A stretch of 64,000 nt of DNA from Deltaproteobacteria bacterium (GCA_030603275.1 JAUVYB010000005.1:13928-77927); one strand, 5' to 3'; numbered from the stretch's first letter, positions 10,005 through 64,000 are shown. Numbers and translations: made by a program. Notes: generated by a model not told the origin, from the letters alone.

Positions 10005-11775
<1,771 letters not shown>

Positions 11776-27770: not shown

Positions 27771-27951
27771 CTTGGCCTGTTCTCCACCGCATTATACCGC
27801 TTGCGACCTGTCAATGCGAGGGGGCATTGATGTTTTTTTGATGTAAATTTGACGTTTTGCTGATGCCGTTTCTAGGCTTTTTTGATTGCTATGGTGCTAT
27901 GTTATTGGTAAGCCCGATTACGCTTCGAGGCGGGCAGAACAGGAGGTAAGC

Positions 27952-29328
27952 ATGAAAAGGAAAATTTTGGGCATGATAACCATTGTGGCAGTGATTCTGG
28001 GGGTGGTAATAGCCGTCCCGGCGGTCGCGGCGGATGTTACGGTGAGTATAGACGCCCCGGCGCAGGTATCCCCCGCCAGCGATTTCACCGTTAATATTAA
28101 TATCACGGAGGTGACCGACTTTGACGCCTGTAACTATGATGTTTCTTTTGACGCCTCGGTGCTGAGGCTGGATAACGTCACCTCCGGGCTGATAGGCTCA
28201 ACCGCGATACCGGTTGATGTCTATAACGAGATTAGCGCCGGCACCTACCGGGTTATTCAGAATGTCCCCGGTATCTCAGGGGTATCCGGTACCGGCTACC
28301 TGGGGGTGCTGAGCTTTCATGTCCTTGGCGCTGAGGGCGACAGCAGCACCATAACTTTCTCCAACGGCGTGATTGCCAGCAGCCTGGCCGAGGAGATAAC
28401 GGCCACCTGGGTGGGCGGCTCGGTGGAGGTGACGGTGACGCCGGTGGCGGTTAGTATAGACGCCCCGGCTGAAGTCAGCCCCGCCAGCGATTTCACCGTT
28501 AACGTCAATATCGGCGATATTACCGACTTCGATGCCGTTAGCTTTGACGTCTCCTTTGATACCCTGGTGCTGCGGCTGGATGATGTAACCGCCGGGCTGA
28601 TAGGCGCAACCGCGATACCGGTGGATATCTATAGCGAGGTTGAGGTGGGGACATGGCGGGTTGTCCAGAACGTGCCCGGTGTAACCGGCGTGACCGGCTC
28701 CGGGTATCTGGCGGTTTTGCACTTCCATGTTATCGGCGCTGACGGCGACGGCAGCGCTATAAGCCTGTCCAACGGCGTGCTTTCCAATAACCTGGCCGAG
28801 GAGATAACGGCCACCTGGACCGGTGATTCGGTGACTATTGCCGATAACACCGCGCCGGTGGTGACCATAACGCCGTTTACCCCCGACCCGACCGATAACA
28901 CCACCCCGACCTTAACCGGCACCGCCACCGATGAATCTAATATAAGCACGGTGGAGTACAAGGTTGATGACGGCATCTGGACGGCGGCGACGGCCAGTGA
29001 CGGCGCCTTTGACAGCCCCAGCGAGAGTTATACCTTTACCACGGCCGCCCTTTCCGAGGCAGAGCATACGGTATACGTCCGGGCTACCGATTCGGCGGGT
29101 AACACTACCGCCGAGGTCGATTACGCCAGTGACAGCTTTACCGTGCAGACGGTGGCACCTGGAGACGCCAACGGTGACGGCACCGTTAATGTCCTTGATA
29201 TCACCAGGGTGGAGAGGGCGATAGCCGCCCTTGATCCTGAAACCCCCGGCTCTGATGCCAATCAGGACGGCGTGATTAACGTGCTGGATATTACCCGGAT
29301 AGAGAGGATGATTGCTGGCCTGGGTTAG
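27952..29328 (+). CDS. Secreted/anchored protein: 2 cohesin-like domains + Ig-like domain + C-terminal dockerin
   Basis: Start at MKRKILGMITIVAVILG (AGGAGG lies 6 nt upstream). Two ~136-aa repeats follow the cohesin pattern (F.VN.NI...TDFDA..(Y/F)DVSFD..VLRLD.VT.G). C-terminal duplicated DANGDGTVNVLDITRVERAIA / DANQDGVINVLDITRIERMIA. Confidence 0.75.
   Translation: MKRKILGMITIVAVILGVVIAVPAVAADVTVSIDAPAQVSPASDFTVNINITEVTDFDACNYDVSFDASVLRLDNVTSGLIGSTAIPVDVYNEISAGTYRVIQNVPGISGVSGTGYLGVLSFHVLGAEGDSSTITFSNGVIASSLAEEITATWVGGSVEVTVTPVAVSIDAPAEVSPASDFTVNVNIGDITDFDAVSFDVSFDTLVLRLDDVTAGLIGATAIPVDIYSEVEVGTWRVVQNVPGVTGVTGSGYLAVLHFHVIGADGDGSAISLSNGVLSNNLAEEITATWTGDSVTIADNTAPVVTITPFTPDPTDNTTPTLTGTATDESNISTVEYKVDDGIWTAATASDGAFDSPSESYTFTTAALSEAEHTVYVRATDSAGNTTAEVDYASDSFTVQTVAPGDANGDGTVNVLDITRVERAIAALDPETPGSDANQDGVINVLDITRIERMIAGLG
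28036..28839 (+). repeat. Tandem ~408-nt duplication encoding the two cohesin-like domains
   Basis: The units start at 28036 and 28444. About 80% nucleotide identity by eye over the aligned stretches. Confidence 0.8.
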
Positions 29329-29699
29329 TCGTCATCCTTTTCTAGCTGGTGCAGCCGGGCATCGCTGATGCCGAAGTGGTGGGCTATTTCGTGCTTGACC
29401 ACCCGCTGGACCTCGGCGCTGATATTGCCCCCGTAGCGGCATTTGGTCTCGATTGACCGCTGGAATATGGTTATCTTGTCCGGCGGCACCAGCCCGTAGT
29501 GCCAGCCCCGCTCGGTCTGAGGTACCCCCTCGTAGAGGCCGAGCAGTGTTTCACTCCGCTCCAGCCCCAGATGGAGCAGCTGGTCGGGCGTGGGCTGGTC
29601 TTCCACCACGATATCTATGTTCTCCAGCCTATCGAGAAACTCCTCAGGCAAATCATCCACCGCCCTGGCCACCAGCCGTTCGAAACTGCCTCTATCCAT
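29325..29699 (-). CDS. Minimal zincin metallopeptidase-family protein (DUF1025-like)
   Basis: 124 aa. HEIAHHFG zinc-binding motif near the C-terminus. Confidence 0.7.
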   Translation of the reverse strand: MDRGSFERLVARAVDDLPEEFLDRLENIDIVVEDQPTPDQLLHLGLERSETLLGLYEGVPQTERGWHYGLVPPDKITIFQRSIETKCRYGGNISAEVQRVVKHEIAHHFGISDARLHQLEKDDD

Positions 29700-29784: not shown

Positions 29785-30591
29785 ATGAGCGCTGAACTAA
29801 GCCGCTTAATCGTCCTTATAAAGGGGGGTGGGGAGGTGGCCAGTGGGGTGGCCCATAAGCTGGCCCGTGCCCGCTTCCGCGTCTGCCTGACCGAAACTGC
29901 TGAGCCCCTGGCCGTCAGCCGGGGGGTCGCCTTCTGCGAGGCAATCTATGACGGGGAGAAGGAGGTTGAGGGGATAGTTGCCCGGCGGGCTGAATCGGCC
30001 GTTGAGATTCATAAGCTGTGGCGGGAGGGACGTGTAGCTATCATCGTTGACCCCAAAACATCGGTCAGGAAAACGTTTAAACCCCAGGTGCTGGTTGACG
30101 CTATAATGGCCAAGAAGAACCTGGGGACAAAAATTAACCATGCCCCGCTGGTTATCGGGCTGGGGCCTGGCTTTGGGGCGGGCAAGGATGTCCATATGGT
30201 GGTGGAGACCAACAACAGCGAGAGGCTGGGGAGGGTAATTCTTGAGGGGGAGGCCGAGAAGGATACCGGAATCCCGGTCGCTATCGGCGGCCTGACCCAT
30301 GAGCGGGCGCTGCACGCTGCCGGAGACGGCCTTTTCCTGACCGACCGATATATAGGTGACCCGGCCAGCGCCGGCGAGGTGGTGGCTACGGTGGCTGGAA
30401 AGCCGGTCAGGGCGGAGATAGACGGTATAGTCCGGGCCATGCTGCGGGACGGGACAACGGTTAAAAAGGGGACGAAGCTGGGGGAGATAGACCCTTCCGG
30501 GGATAAAGAGGACTGTTATACCATTCGCCCCAGGGTGAGGGCGATTGCCGGCGGGGTTTTAGAGGCGATAATGATGCGCTACAATGCTTAG
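29785..30591 (+). CDS. yqeB: YqeB/EF2563-family selenium-dependent molybdenum hydroxylase system protein
   Basis: 268 aa. IKGGGEVASGVAHKLARARF.V...E...PLAVSRGVAF.EAIYDG matches my recollection of the YqeB family. Adjacent to xdhC. Confidence 0.7.
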   Translation: MSAELSRLIVLIKGGGEVASGVAHKLARARFRVCLTETAEPLAVSRGVAFCEAIYDGEKEVEGIVARRAESAVEIHKLWREGRVAIIVDPKTSVRKTFKPQVLVDAIMAKKNLGTKINHAPLVIGLGPGFGAGKDVHMVVETNNSERLGRVILEGEAEKDTGIPVAIGGLTHERALHAAGDGLFLTDRYIGDPASAGEVVATVAGKPVRAEIDGIVRAMLRDGTTVKKGTKLGEIDPSGDKEDCYTIRPRVRAIAGGVLEAIMMRYNA

Positions 30592-30608: not shown

Positions 30609-31382
30609 ATGAATGATATTTACCAGGAGATAGTAAGGGTTAAGGCGGAGGGGGAGGAGGCGGCGCTGGTCACGGTTGTTTCGGCCAGCGGCTCCACGCC
30701 CAGAGAGGAAGGGGCCAAGATGCTGGTCAGCCCCGACGGCAGCATTTTGGGAACAATCGGCGGCGGTAGCCTGGAAGTCCAGGTAATCAAGGAGGCGGTT
30801 AAGGTGATAAAGCAGGCCAAGCCAAAGCGTCTCTACATGAGCTTGACCGCTGAGGAAGCCGGGGAGATGGGGATGATATGCGGTGGGGAGCTGGAGGTGT
30901 TTATCGAGCCTATCCTGACCACGCCTGCCTTATATATATTCGGCGGTGGGCATATCGCGCTGTCGCTGGCCAGGATGGGCAAGCTGGTCGGCTTTAATAT
31001 TACTGTCATCGACGACCGGGCTGATTTCGCCAGTGCCGAGAGGTTCCCCGAAGCCGATGTTATCCTGGCCGAGGACTTTACCAAATCATTCCCTAAGCTA
31101 AAGATAGATAAATCGAGCTACATCGTGATTGTTACCCATGGTCACCAGCATGACGAGGTGGTGCTGGAGTGGGCGGTGGGCACCCCGGCTAAGTATATCG
31201 GCATGATAGGCAGCAAAACCAAAAACGAGACTATATTCTCCCACCTGCTGGCCAGGGGAATATCCCGGGAGCAGATGGACAGGGCCCATGCCCCGATTGG
31301 CCTGGAAATAGAGGCGCAGACGCCGGAGGAGATAGCCGTCAGCATCCTGGCGGAGGTAATAAAAGTCCGGCGGTCTTCTTAA
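30609..31382 (+). CDS. xdhC: XdhC/CoxI-family molybdenum hydroxylase accessory protein
   Basis: 257 aa. N-terminal XdhC_CoxI-like segment (ALVTVVSASGSTPRE.GAKMLV) and a Rossmann-like half (IFGGGHIA). Confidence 0.82.
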   Translation: MNDIYQEIVRVKAEGEEAALVTVVSASGSTPREEGAKMLVSPDGSILGTIGGGSLEVQVIKEAVKVIKQAKPKRLYMSLTAEEAGEMGMICGGELEVFIEPILTTPALYIFGGGHIALSLARMGKLVGFNITVIDDRADFASAERFPEADVILAEDFTKSFPKLKIDKSSYIVIVTHGHQHDEVVLEWAVGTPAKYIGMIGSKTKNETIFSHLLARGISREQMDRAHAPIGLEIEAQTPEEIAVSILAEVIKVRRSS

Positions 31383-31897: not shown

Positions 31898-32461
31898 CTA
31901 GAACAGGGGTTTGCAGAGGACTTCCTTGACCTTGAGGTCGAAAAAGTCCTCGGAGTTGACTGGCCGCAGTACCACCGCCGTATCCACCCCACGGCCGGTG
32001 CCGCCGATAACGATGATATCCTCGTCGGTGCGCACCAGGCCGGCGTCAGCCGCCATAAGGGCGATTTCACAGACTACCTTCATGCCCTGTCCGAATATAC
32101 GCAGGGTGTTAGCCACCGTTTCCTCGAAGAGGTACATATTGAACTTCTTGCGCATCGCCCGGCCCAGTCCCGAGAAAAGGTGGGTGGCGGTGAGCAGGGG
32201 GACGCCGGCGCTAACTAGCTTCTGCCGGTTCTCTTCGGTGAACTCCTGGAAATTTGGCTCTCTCATACCAGTAAAGTGGCTGACCGCCACTATTCTGGCT
32301 CCCTTAAAGACCTCCACCGCCTTTAACGCGGTATCCCCGCTGGTAGAGGCTACCAGAATGCTCTTTATGCCCAACTCTTCCGCCCTGATCCCGACCAGGC
32401 GCAGCACTTCATCGGTGTTCTGCTTCCCGGGCTCGGGAAAATAGGTTATCTTTGCTTCCAT
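31898..32461 (-). CDS. Stand-alone pyruvate kinase C-terminal (alpha/beta) domain-like protein
   Basis: 187 aa. ILVASTSGDTALK...RIVAV pattern as in the PK C domain. Last gene of the fdhD-Ubl-E1 operon. Confidence 0.6.
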   Translation of the reverse strand: MEAKITYFPEPGKQNTDEVLRLVGIRAEELGIKSILVASTSGDTALKAVEVFKGARIVAVSHFTGMREPNFQEFTEENRQKLVSAGVPLLTATHLFSGLGRAMRKKFNMYLFEETVANTLRIFGQGMKVVCEIALMAADAGLVRTDEDIIVIGGTGRGVDTAVVLRPVNSEDFFDLKVKEVLCKPLF

Positions 32462-32509: not shown

Positions 32510-33268
32510 TTATTTCCTGTCTTTTGCCGGCTTTCCGCAGTGCGGGCAATCGGGGTCTTTTTTAACCTTGAACTCGGTAAATTTCATGTTAAGCCCGTCG
32601 TAGACTAAAAGTCTATTGGCCAGCATCTGCCCTATCCCCACCAAGTATTTTATCACCTCTGTCGCCTGGATGCAGCCGATAACCGCCGGCGTTACCCCTA
32701 TGACCGGGAATTCCTCCTCGGCGATGGTTCCCCGGTAGACGCATCTAAGGCAGGCGGTCTGGCCCGGTATTACGGTCATGGCCCTGCCCTCAAAGCCGTA
32801 GACCGCACCGTGAAAGAAGGGGATATTTTTTTCTATGGCGGTTTTATTGAGCAGATAGCGGGTGGGCAGGTTGTCCATGGCATCGACGATGAGGTCACAG
32901 CCTTCCACCAGCCGGGAGACATTGGCTTTGGTTATTCTTTTCTCGACGGCTTCTATTTTTACCTGCGGGTTCAGTTGTTTTAGCTTGCCCTTAGCTGAAC
33001 TGACTTTTTTTTGGCCGATGTCCTCCGGCCAGTGCAGGATCTGCCGGTTAAGGTTGCTCAGTTCTACCTTATCGTGGTCAACGATGCGCAGTGTGCCCAC
33101 TCCGGCAGCGGCCAGATAGGTGGCTGAGGAAGAGCCAAGGCCGCCGGCGCCGGCAATAAAGACCGTGGCCCTTTTTAGCTTTTCCTGCCCTTTTTGCCCG
33201 AAGCCTTTAAGCATTATCTGGCGGGCATATTTTTCCTGCTCGTCTTGGTTGAGCATTTTGCCGGTCAC
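32510..33268 (-). CDS. ThiF/MoeB/HesA-family E1-like adenylyltransferase
   Basis: 252 aa. YARQI...GQ.KL....V.I.GAGGLGS, D.D.VE.SNLNRQ, zinc cysteines CLRC and CPHC. No rhodanese domain. Confidence 0.85.
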   Translation of the reverse strand: MTGKMLNQDEQEKYARQIMLKGFGQKGQEKLKRATVFIAGAGGLGSSSATYLAAAGVGTLRIVDHDKVELSNLNRQILHWPEDIGQKKVSSAKGKLKQLNPQVKIEAVEKRITKANVSRLVEGCDLIVDAMDNLPTRYLLNKTAIEKNIPFFHGAVYGFEGRAMTVIPGQTACLRCVYRGTIAEEEFPVIGVTPAVIGCIQATEVIKYLVGIGQMLANRLLVYDGLNMKFTEFKVKKDPDCPHCGKPAKDRK

Positions 33269-61972: not shown

Positions 61973-62124
61973 TTTCCCCTTACGGCAAATTCCAACAAGA
62001 TGCCCCCGATTTAAGCCCGTTCGCTAGTTCGTATATTTGCCAACTTTGTCACGCAATAAATCATATTGTGCAGTACACGTTTCTACATAATTGCGTATTT
62101 TTTGATATGTTATAATAGTTGACG

Positions 62125-63282
62125 ATGAACAAAACCGCAACGAAACGCCACGTAAAGATAGTATGCACACTGGGTCCCGCCAGCAGCTCTCCCCGAGTTA
62201 TTGAAAATATGCTAAAAGGCGGCATGGACGTCGTACGCCTTAACCTAGCCCACGGGACACTTCAGGAGCACAGCCAGCTCATTTCTGAAGTTCGGTCGCT
62301 CAGTCAAAAGCTTAAACTTCCTGTAGGCATCCTCCTTGATCTTCCTGGTCTTAAACTTGGCCACGGGGATATCAAGGCCGTTTTCGGTCAGCATCTAGAT
62401 TTTGCTCTTACCGAGGACGCTGACTTCATTGCCCTATCTTTCATCTCCTCAGTGCGACAGGTACGAGAGGTCAAGCAGCTGCTTAGAAAAATGAAGGCTG
62501 ACATACCTGTCATTGTCAAGATAGAGGAAGCGCGGGCTTTGGAAGAGAGCGAAATCATACTTGAGGCTGGGGAAGGTATCATGGTGGCCAGAGGAGACCT
62601 GGCCCTGGACATAAGCATCGAGAAAGTGCCAATGGCCCAGAAAAGGCTGATAAAGGAGGCCAATCGTCAGGGAAAGCCGGTAATTACCGCCACCCAAATG
62701 CTTGAGTCTATGGTACGGTCAGCTACACCGACGAGGGCAGAGGCCACCGACGTAGCCAATGCTGTCCTTGATGGCAGTGACGCTCTGATGCTCTCTGAGG
62801 AAACGGCCATTGGTAGTTATCCCGTCGAAGCTATGGAGACAATGGTAAAAATAGCCCTGGAAGCTGAGGTAATGTTCCCCTATGAGGAGATACTCCACAG
62901 CCGTTGGCAGGATATCTTGCCTGAGGTTAATGATGCGGCTGCCAGAGCCGCCTGCCAGATGGCTCACCAGGTGCAAGCCAAGGCCATCGTCGCCTTTACC
63001 ACCGCTGGGACTACGGCCTTAAGGGTATCGAAATATAGACCGTATCATCCTATTCTGGCGATAACCCCATCGGCATCAGTGGTGAGACGTCTTTCGTTAG
63101 TCTGGGGAGTACTACCACTTGAAGAACCTGAGCCTGCAAATCTGGAGGAGGTCTTCGAGCTGGCAAGCCAAGCGGCATTGGAGACGAACCTCGCTAAGAG
63201 GGGCGACCTGATAGTGATTATTGCCGGAATTCCCCTGGCTGTTCCGGGAAGCACCAACTTAGTCAAAATACACTGTATCTAA
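62125..63282 (+). CDS. Pyruvate kinase-like protein lacking the B (lid) domain
   Basis: A-domain motifs are present (KIVCTLGP, VVRLNLAHG, VKIEE, MVARGDLA, ATQMLESM, MLSEETA) and the C domain is present. The sequence runs from LLDLPGLKLGHG directly into DIKAVFG...ADFIALSFI, where about 100 aa of B domain are expected. Confidence 0.72.
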   Translation: MNKTATKRHVKIVCTLGPASSSPRVIENMLKGGMDVVRLNLAHGTLQEHSQLISEVRSLSQKLKLPVGILLDLPGLKLGHGDIKAVFGQHLDFALTEDADFIALSFISSVRQVREVKQLLRKMKADIPVIVKIEEARALEESEIILEAGEGIMVARGDLALDISIEKVPMAQKRLIKEANRQGKPVITATQMLESMVRSATPTRAEATDVANAVLDGSDALMLSEETAIGSYPVEAMETMVKIALEAEVMFPYEEILHSRWQDILPEVNDAAARAACQMAHQVQAKAIVAFTTAGTTALRVSKYRPYHPILAITPSASVVRRLSLVWGVLPLEEPEPANLEEVFELASQAALETNLAKRGDLIVIIAGIPLAVPGSTNLVKIHCI

Positions 63283-63521
63283 TTTACACCTGGTCTAATC
63301 AGTTAACAGTTCTTGGCGGGAGCCGATTACCCCAATTCTTAACCGGATTTTAGCATTTGGCTATTGAATGCAGATCCTTCATCCGGGTTACCGATAAGCT
63401 TAGACATCGAATTGGCCCCGTTAGGGAAGGGGGATGTTATTATACTAGAACAATCGTTCCATTGTCAAGGGGTTTTAGTGGCCGTTTATAGGGAGTATAA
63501 TTGTATTTCAGAGTGAAAGAG

Positions 63522-64000
63522 ATGCCTGATGATGCCAGGATTTACGTCGGTACCTCTGGCTGGTCCTACCCGAAAGGGGAAGGCACCTGGAAAGGCTATT
63601 TCTACCCGTCAGGCAAGATAAATGAACTGGAGTACTACAGCCAGTTCTTCAACACGGTGGAAATCAACAGCTCGTTCTACAGACCGCCCAATCCCGGATA
63701 TGTGTATAACTGGGTTGAGCGAGTTCCAGAAGATTTTCTATTTACTGTCAAGCTCTGGCAGAAGTTCACCCACCCGAAGATGTATGAAGAGGCTACCGGT
63801 GAAGTGGCTGCAATATCCCAGGAAGACGTTGACCTGTTCAAGCATAGCATCGAGCCGCTGGCTAACTCAGGGAAGCTCGGTGCTCTGTTGGCGCAATTCC
63901 CGCCGAGTTTCAAAAATGACGGTTTTGGGAAGCAAATAATGGAAGCAGTTATCAGGACCTTTAGCGAGTACAGGCTGGCAGTTGAACTAAGACACCGGAG
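63522..64000 (+). CDS. DUF72 (YecE-like) family protein, N-terminal part (runs off the window end)
   Basis: Absent from the ORF track because it has no stop in the window. My translation: MPDDARIYVGTSGWSYPKGEGTWKGYFYPSGKINELEYYSQFFNTVEINSSFYRPP..., the typical DUF72 N-terminus. Confidence 0.85.
   Translation, partial: MPDDARIYVGTSGWSYPKGEGTWKGYFYPSGKINELEYYSQFFNTVEINSSFYRPPNPGYVYNWVERVPEDFLFTVKLWQKFTHPKMYEEATGEVAAISQEDVDLFKHSIEPLANSGKLGALLAQFPPSFKNDGFGKQIMEAVIRTFSEYRLAVELRHR

Follow-up and report, generated by a model that had tools for sequence, protein, structure and literature searches.

The B (lid) domain counts among the regular components of pyruvate kinase (PK), in which it closes over the substrates and gives contacts to the nucleotide. 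A review of PK architecture describes enzymes in which the C domain is missing or duplicated, and loss of the B domain is not among the variants that it covers (PMC10176505). In the window, the whole 64-kb stretch of DNA analysed here, one gene encodes a PK homolog that keeps the barrel-forming A domain and the C domain and has a short loop where the lid should be. What does such a protein do, and is it still a pyruvate kinase? A search of the full-text literature turned up no description of a natural PK that lacks the B domain and returned only engineered examples.

Gene and family assignment

The gene lies at 62125-63282 on the plus strand, with its ATG at 62125 and its stop codon at 63280-63282, and encodes 385 aa; the CDS is supported by the ORF, by Pfam, by TIGR01064 and by dN/dS against orthologs (given below). 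The same ORF and length had been reported in a preliminary description made from the DNA, whose motifs are all found there: VVRLNLAHG, VKIEE, MVARGDLA, ATQMLESM, MLSEETA, LLDLPGLKLGHG and DIKAVFG...ADFIALSFI. The earliest possible start is an in-frame TTG at 62119; the homologs, of 385 aa, start instead at the ATG.

Positions shared with other PKs are given below in the numbering of rabbit muscle M1 PK, marked as such; the numbering of the rabbit sequence agreed at 16 landmark residues. The N-terminal part of the A domain (residues 1-73, beta1-beta3; 62125-62343, plus strand), as delimited by the rabbit M1 alignment, the AlphaFold model and site frequencies, contains R38 (rabbit R72), N40 (N74), A42 (S76), H43 (H77) and D72 (D112). 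It is followed by a 9-residue linker, LPGLKLGHG, which stands in place of the B domain (residues 74-82; 62344-62370, plus strand) and was defined by alignment, site frequencies and the AlphaFold model. The C-terminal part of the A domain (residues 83-250, alpha3 to alpha8; 62371-62874, plus strand), delimited by site frequencies and dN/dS, contains K132 (K269), E134 (E271), D158 (D295), T190 (T327), S224 (S361) and E226 (E363). The C (regulatory alpha/beta) domain comprises residues 270-385 (62932-63279, plus strand); Pfam PK_C matches residues 270-383 over its full profile (positions 1-114 of 114) with 128 bits.

The protein scores 242.7 bits against Pfam PK (cut-off 30) and 392.8 bits, in two stretches, against TIGR01064, the NCBIfam equivalog model for pyruvate kinase (cut-off 306.4). 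It falls under the cut-off of each of the subfamily models PRK06354, PRK05826 and PRK06247. Among the features of the PK family (PF00224 and PF02887; TIGR01064), the A barrel, the C domain and scores above the curated cut-offs are all found, and the B domain is absent. Lid-free barrels that bind pyruvate or PEP with Mg2+ also occur in the HpcH/HpaI aldolases and in the PEP-utilising domain of PPDK and PEP synthase, and Pfam HpcH_HpaI gave a sub-threshold match (E = 3.7e-4, 20.3 bits against a cut-off of 25); unlike these enzymes, the window protein has the PK catalytic residues and a PK C domain. Homology places it in the PK family, and catalysis of PEP + ADP to pyruvate + ATP is at most predicted. 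Because the B domain is missing and the activity is a prediction, we assign the protein to the Lys117-type PKs, described below, as a form that lacks the lid, and do not treat it as an established enzyme of EC 2.7.1.40.

Absence of the lid

Where full-length relatives have a B domain of approximately 93-97 residues, the lidless protein has a loop of nine. The Pfam PK profile matched in two stretches with the lid part skipped, the second stretch covering profile positions 181-327, and phmmer against the PDB paired query residues 8-79 with residues 23-94 of Staphylococcus aureus PK and query residues 67-385 with residues 177-493; these Pfam and PDB alignments leave out approximately 85-97 residues at the lid. 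In a MAFFT alignment that included full-length relatives as well as rabbit M1 PK, the gap runs approximately from rabbit residue 125 to 221. An AlphaFold2 monomer model, computed from a deep alignment to which 121 full-length relatives had been added, reached a pLDDT of 95.1 and a pTM of 0.94 and shows the C domain and a complete set of eight barrel strands, with beta3 at 68-73, the loop at 74-82 and alpha3 at 83-96. A model from 38 lidless sequences only (at least 75% identical) was poor (pLDDT 65.5) and was discarded. Foldseek aligned the good model to PK structures with TMq values of 0.92-0.93, and to the crystallised human liver PK from which the B domain had been deleted (7QDN) with a TMq of 0.92 and an rmsd of 2.0 A. 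The excision of the B domain proposed in the preliminary description is therefore borne out by Pfam, the PDB alignment, MAFFT and AlphaFold2. Alignment and model leave no intact but divergent lid, the finding that would have spoken against that proposal, and alignment, Pfam and model agree with it also in that the catalytic residues of the A domain and a complete C domain have been retained.

Among full-length relatives P0123 is the nearest; it has 478 aa, is 51% identical over the A and C domains and belongs to a clade from metagenome-assembled genomes (MAGs) titled "Dehalococcoidia bacterium". It reads ...ILIDLPGPKYRTGKLRDG...[B domain]...FITDTLRECIVFAV..., and the lidless proteins read ...ILLDLPGLK(L/R/Y)(G/R/S)xG(D)IKAVFGQHLDFAL.... 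Comparison of the two places the cut immediately past the first hinge, with the chain resuming just ahead of alpha3. The LPGLK of the linker was aligned to the DLPGPK that precedes the lid on account of the residue-for-residue match in the sister sequences; an alternative offered by HMMER, in which LPGLK is paired with the LPG motif that follows the lid, was rejected.

A lid might still be supplied in trans, if a separate B-domain protein or some other docking protein closed the active site. PK domains are known that are split or encoded on their own, and the window itself encodes a stand-alone PK_C protein at 31898-32461 on the minus strand (PF02887, 45.6 bits, cut-off 28), which the preliminary description had already recognised. 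However, when three B domains were compared by tblastn with the window and nine lidless loci (179 kb together), no match was better than E = 0.1; the neighbourhoods of the lidless genes are not conserved, and the hinge stumps are down to a 9-residue loop of variable sequence. We consider a lid in trans very improbable. The stand-alone PK_C gene lies 30 kb from the lidless gene and shows no link to it, and the syntenic region of a related locus (L004) appears to be without it.

Distribution and selection

A survey of lid-less homologs, of the kind proposed in the preliminary description, recovered at least 115 lidless clusters. The best 120 database clusters, from JGI, ENA, NCBI and Logan, are 75-93% identical to the window protein and nearly all 385 aa long, and the deletion is common to at least 115 sequences of 380-394 aa and 70-93% identity (114 of these best 120 clusters together with P0121). 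In a library clustered at 50% identity the clade is reduced to one full-length representative, P0121 (70% identity), and a fragment, and is therefore a narrow one. Among the GTDB species representatives, the lidless form was found in nine MAGs, of which six carry the title Dehalococcoidales or Dehalococcoidia and the remaining three Deltaproteobacteria or Desulfobacterales; the other matches there are full-length PKs with 38-48% identity. All members of the clade come from uncultured organisms.

Pairwise dN/dS between the window gene and its orthologs is 0.08-0.19, about 0.12, with dS up to approximately 1.5. By region, it is 0.10-0.15 for the barrel, with its lowest value (0.10) over residues 85-250, and 0.13 for the C domain, which indicates strong purifying selection on barrel and C domain alike; over residues 74-84 it rises to 0.33, so that the linker is the least constrained segment. 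The mean identity of the lidless protein to full-length representatives is 43.0%, and six full-length relatives set against these representatives reach 43-48%, which gives weak support to faster evolution after the loss of the lid.

Faulty assembly, or a decaying pseudogene recently disabled by a deletion, would also produce an unusual architecture, and this architecture is the only point in favour of such an explanation. More than 100 clusters, obtained by independent projects with independent assemblers, have the same 385-aa arrangement; reading frames stay intact at dS values up to approximately 1.5 with dN/dS near 0.1, and the promoter described below is conserved. Together, the clusters, the dN/dS and the promoter refute an artefact or a pseudogene, to which we assign next to no probability.

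Active site, linker and the signature of K+-independent PKs

Nine catalytic residues (rabbit R72, N74, D112, K269, E271, D295, T327, S361 and E363), which serve PEP/pyruvate, Mg2+ and proton transfer, are invariant in all 116 lidless sequences. The full-length relatives have the same residues in 121/121 cases, except for S361 (119/121).

The preliminary description had counted the Thr-Lys of the motif DTKGPEIR among the losses of the lidless protein. This part of it does not stand: the closest full-length Dehalococcoidia PKs already read DLPGPKYRTG, and the lidless protein retains a lysine, K77. With DLPGPK present in the full-length sisters, the missing Thr-Lys is an ancestral trait of the lineage and separate from the loss of the lid. 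K77 occupies rabbit position 117 in 116/116 lidless sequences, and L73 occupies position 113 in 113/116. Leu113 and Lys117 (DLPGxK) mark K+-independent PKs, in which the lysine stands in for the monovalent cation, and Gln114 and Leu/Ile/Val120 go with Lys117 in 77% of such enzymes (PMC8835810, PMC4284704). These last two features are not found in the lidless protein: position 114 is Pro, as it also is in 25/121 full-length relatives, and position 120 is H, R, V or Q in the variable linker. Across the lidless alignment, LPGLK is near-invariant and residues 78-80 vary.

Four further positions differ between the two groups. Rabbit R119, an arginine in 121/121 full-length relatives, is Gly in 43, Arg in 34 and Ser in 32 of the 116 lidless sequences, and Gly (G79) in the window protein. 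At the H77 position (rabbit numbering) the lidless sequences have His (61) or Tyr (55), against His in 119/121 full-length relatives; at S76, Ala in 112/116 against Ser in 113/121; and at P116, Leu in 114/116 against Pro in 115/121.

Part of the nucleotide site has gone with the lid. In the PK of Streptococcus pneumoniae, the B domain provides Lys184 as a ribose contact, Gly185 through a water bridge to the beta-phosphate, and Asp153 as a ligand of a water on the second Mg2+, and positions on helix A-alpha2 touch the nucleotide base (bioRxiv 10.1101/2024.06.25.600556). The equivalents of Lys184, Gly185 and Asp153 are all gone from the lidless protein. The A-alpha2 positions are well kept, with E48 in 111/116 and H49 in 115/116 lidless sequences.

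The changes at rabbit R119, H77 and S76 would speak for an altered ADP-dependent activity, as they suggest that the nucleotide and K+ side of the site has been freed of constraint, a pattern that fits a changed second substrate equally with a weakened one. It is possible, though doubtful, that the protein has been neofunctionalised and no longer uses ADP, and that it hydrolyses PEP, decarboxylates oxaloacetate, enolises pyruvate or passes the phosphoryl group to a bulky acceptor for which the open site would now have room. PEP hydrolysis, oxaloacetate decarboxylation and pyruvate enolisation are known side reactions of PK. In this direction points the relaxation or replacement of R119, H77, S76 and P116 beside PEP and Mg2+ residues that are invariant. 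However, the E48/H49 helix, N40 and R38 are still conserved, and the conservation of E48 and H49 would argue against a loss of nucleotide use; relaxation at R119 is to be expected anyway, since this residue sits on the lid hinge. Nor do new conserved residues mark out a pocket, the linker being the least constrained segment.

In the C domain, four residues of the loop T292-x-x-G295-x-T297-A298 never vary within the lidless set, and in full-length relatives their conservation is 88% or more. The strong purifying selection on this domain and its loop could also be read as that on a non-catalytic, regulatory protein, either a sensor of PEP or of an effector or a subunit that mixes into tetramers of a full-length PK from another gene of the genome and adjusts the activity of that PK. 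One engineered B-deleted PK has been crystallised (7QDN). Such PKs are reported to retain the tetramer. Against a purely regulatory role, the catalytic residues are present in 116/116 sequences, including the proton donor T327, the phosphoryl-transfer residue K269 and both Mg2+ ligands, an invariance that mere binding would not need; the lowest dN/dS (0.10) falls in the catalytic half of the barrel, and the window holds no full-length PK as partner. We regard this role as improbable.

A second lidless lineage

Lid loss combined with loss of catalysis may have occurred elsewhere, which is a further point for the regulatory alternative. P0242, P0271 and P0424 represent a 385-aa lidless PK nested among the PKs of Clostridium, found on up to 23 contigs and forming two 90% clusters with six member sequences. 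It is 69-70% identical to full-length Clostridium PKs and 40% identical to the window protein, which it resembles in that the B domain has been cut out cleanly and the A and C domains are kept. Since it stems from a separate PK lineage, the lid must have been lost at least twice. Unlike the window gene, this Clostridium-like gene is directly 3' of pfkA, the position of a classical glycolytic operon; its group is very small, and its active site is degenerate, with the changes N74S, H77N and D295H (rabbit numbering) and one Mg2+ ligand gone. Next to these three changes, the full conservation of the catalytic residues in the Dehalococcoidales clade becomes more meaningful.

Genomic setting

The full-length sister PK gene is the last in an operon of a ROK (glucokinase-type) gene, a DeoC-family aldolase gene and the PK gene, amid genes for glycogen and trehalose (loci L041 and L042). 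The lidless gene is always solitary and its neighbours vary between genomes; no conserved gene neighbours were found among the related loci compared, so that there is also no candidate for the protein acceptor that a neofunctionalised enzyme might use. The flanks of lidless and full-length loci have no orthologs in common. Within the 64-kb window, there is no second PK gene and no ORF of sufficient length for PPDK or PEP synthase.

Upstream of the lidless gene, an extended -10 box, TGTTATAAT (62108-62116, plus strand), ends 8 nt before the ATG; its TG is at 62108-62109 and its TATAAT at 62111-62116, and no Shine-Dalgarno sequence lies between the box and the start codon. A two-hexamer promoter scan did not pick up this box. 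The preliminary description had pointed to the TATAAT and to the missing Shine-Dalgarno sequence, and the arrangement proves to be kept in seven related loci: in these and in the window, TG(C/T)TATAAT lies 8-11 nt before the start codon in flanks that have otherwise diverged. This conservation supports an mRNA with no leader or almost none. Within the window the lidless gene is not alone in this arrangement, as two other genes, with starts at 11775 and 21729 on the minus strand, have the -10-like boxes TGCTATAAT and TGCTAGTAT 8 nt before their ATG.

Farther upstream is an 18-nt element, TGTGCAGTACACGTTTCT (62067-62084, plus strand), that covers positions -58 to -41 relative to the start codon and is conserved in relatives. 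The sequence TGTGCAGTAYACGKTTCT occurs once in the window, against 0.03 occurrences expected by chance, and is found exactly in eight lidless loci (approximately five distinct places), always upstream of the lidless gene; seven of these loci have it at -57 to -59 and one, L005, at -157. It is thus conserved in part of the clade and is possibly the binding site of a regulator. No tRNA or Rfam matches were found near the gene.

The departure from the glycolytic and glycogen operon, together with monocistronic transcription from an own promoter and a gene-specific upstream element, would also suit a protein with a new function. We think it unlikely that lid loss has turned a glycolytic kinase into such an enzyme, which would use no ADP, would either catalyse a reaction without any nucleotide or transfer the PEP phosphoryl group to an acceptor too large for a lidded site, and would answer to a regulator of its own through the 18-nt element.

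Proposed function

We put at about an even chance that the lidless protein is a functional enzyme derived from a K+-independent Dehalococcoidia PK, works with an open active site and is still a pyruvate kinase. If so, it is probably a slow enzyme under allosteric regulation. Its ancestor would have been a Lys117-type Dehalococcoidia PK, from which the B domain was lost precisely and in frame at two hinge points. PEP and Mg2+ would still be bound at the barrel top, where K77 would provide the charge of the monovalent cation, and the phosphoryl group would pass to a nucleoside diphosphate gripped by elements of the A domain only. The result may be a slow kinase of low affinity, possibly less selective for the nucleotide, with an uncovered active site, and it would probably retain the tetramer and allosteric regulation through the conserved C-domain loop. 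The gene forms a transcription unit by itself, with a conserved extended -10 promoter positioned for a leaderless mRNA. Uncoupled from the sugar-catabolic operon of its sister, it would suit a low-flux or conditionally induced step from PEP to pyruvate in slow-growing anaerobes.

This proposal can be set beside two kinds of known enzyme. With the Lys117-type PKs such as P0123, the lidless proteins share DLPG(P/L)K, the catalytic residues and the C-domain loop. P0123 differs in its B domain of approximately 93 residues, its invariant R119, its SHG at 76-78 (rabbit numbering) and its place in an operon, whereas the lidless gene is solitary and its mRNA appears leaderless. With the engineered lid-deleted PKs (E. 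coli PykF 'PKTIM+Reg' and the human liver PKL of 7QDN), the lidless proteins share the A and C domains and the replacement of the lid by a short loop. The engineered enzymes are laboratory-made, K+-dependent and FBP-regulated; the lidless clade is natural, selected and of the Lys117 type, and only in the clade are there secondary changes at R119, H77, S76 and P116. By analogy, the engineered examples support the reading in which the window protein has retained kinase activity. Going by the title of the work of Sugrue et al. (2020, Eur Biophys J 49:761), the engineered lidless E. coli PK is said to be still catalytic, and its abstract reportedly grants this enzyme just low-level activity.

Implications

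A natural, selected clade of lidless PKs amounts to an experiment that enzymologists had done only by protein engineering. It makes testable the share of the lid in PK catalysis, in the choice of nucleotide and in allostery, as well as the compensating changes at R119, H77, S76 and P116 and at the LPGLK stump. Also open to test is the re-purposing of a central glycolytic enzyme through the loss of a domain. Automated pipelines label the lidless proteins "pyruvate kinase", and for this reason metabolic reconstructions of Dehalococcoidales MAGs may assume a normal step from PEP to pyruvate where, in these organisms, such a step is only predicted.

Sequence Upstream of the Lidless Pyruvate Kinase Gene

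An 18-nt element, TGTGCAGTAYACGKTTCT, lies upstream of the lidless pk on the plus strand at window positions 62067-62084, where it occurs as a single copy against 0.03 expected by chance. The same element was found 5' of the lidless pk in 8 related loci, namely L001 (8526-8543), L008 (9942-9959), L043 (145-162), L044 (141-158), L046, L047 and L048 (5943-5960 in each) and L005 (9844-9861). Its offset from the start codon is -57 to -59 in seven of these loci, and -157 in L005. The element is a candidate site that may be bound by a dedicated regulator.

A different motif, TTTTATACTACAATTT(G/A)C..., is common to L005, L006 and L007, approximately 70-100 nt 5' of the lidless pk start and before the pk promoter. 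It is absent from the window, and may be part of a divergent promoter or of an inserted element.

Sequence Downstream of the Gene

On the minus strand, approximately 160 nt past the pk stop codon, a perfect 12/12 match to the sigma-70 consensus promoter (TTGACA, 18 nt, TATAAT; window 63468..63439) is directed antisense into the pk 3' end. This region gave no tRNA or Rfam matches and is not conserved in relatives. The next gene 3' of the lidless pk (63522-64000, plus strand) continues past the window end, and its product, which starts MPDDARIYVGTSGWSYPKGEGTWKGYFYP, is presumably DUF72-like. A TATAAT sequence at 63496-63501 lies about 20 nt 5' of this gene.

Related Pyruvate Kinases

A second lid-less PK of 385 aa (P0271, P0242 and P0424), found on up to 23 contigs and encoded at L049 2628-3785 and L050 1343-2500, is nested among Clostridium PKs and is independent of the window's lidless clade. 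Its gene is located immediately 3' of pfkA, and its active site carries N74S, H77N and D295H (rabbit M1 PK numbering). In Dehalococcoidia MAGs, the gene for the full-length sister PK comes last in a ROK - DeoC-family aldolase - PK operon (L041 7950-11437; L042 7970-11470) set amid glycogen and trehalose genes, with GH77, branching enzyme, glycogen synthase, ADP-glucose pyrophosphorylase, phosphorylase and GH57 in the surroundings.

Other Genes of the Window

The window also encodes, on the minus strand at 31898-32461, a 187-aa protein with a stand-alone PK_C domain. The protein scores 45.6 bits against Pfam PF02887 and has no match in NCBIfam, and its gene neighbours are a MoeB/ThiF-like adenylyltransferase (32510-33268), an XdhC-family maturation factor (30609-31382) and YqeB (29785-30591). 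In the related locus L004 the flanking genes are syntenic with those of the window and the space between them is approximately 266 nt, which seems too small for the PK_C gene. No connection between this gene and the lidless PK was found. A 480-aa protein (27886-29328, plus strand) matches the cohesin domain twice and also has a bacterial Ig-like domain and, at its C-terminus, a type I dockerin; these are modules of the cellulosome type in an apparent Dehalococcoidales genome.

Four further minus-strand genes have no obvious Shine-Dalgarno sequence before their starts. The genes that start at 11775 and 21729 have a -10-like box (TGCTATAAT and TGCTAGTAT, respectively) 8 nt ahead of the ATG, and those that start at 29699 and 34259 have a weaker box at a distance of 10 nt. 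Leaderless transcripts may be widespread in this genome.
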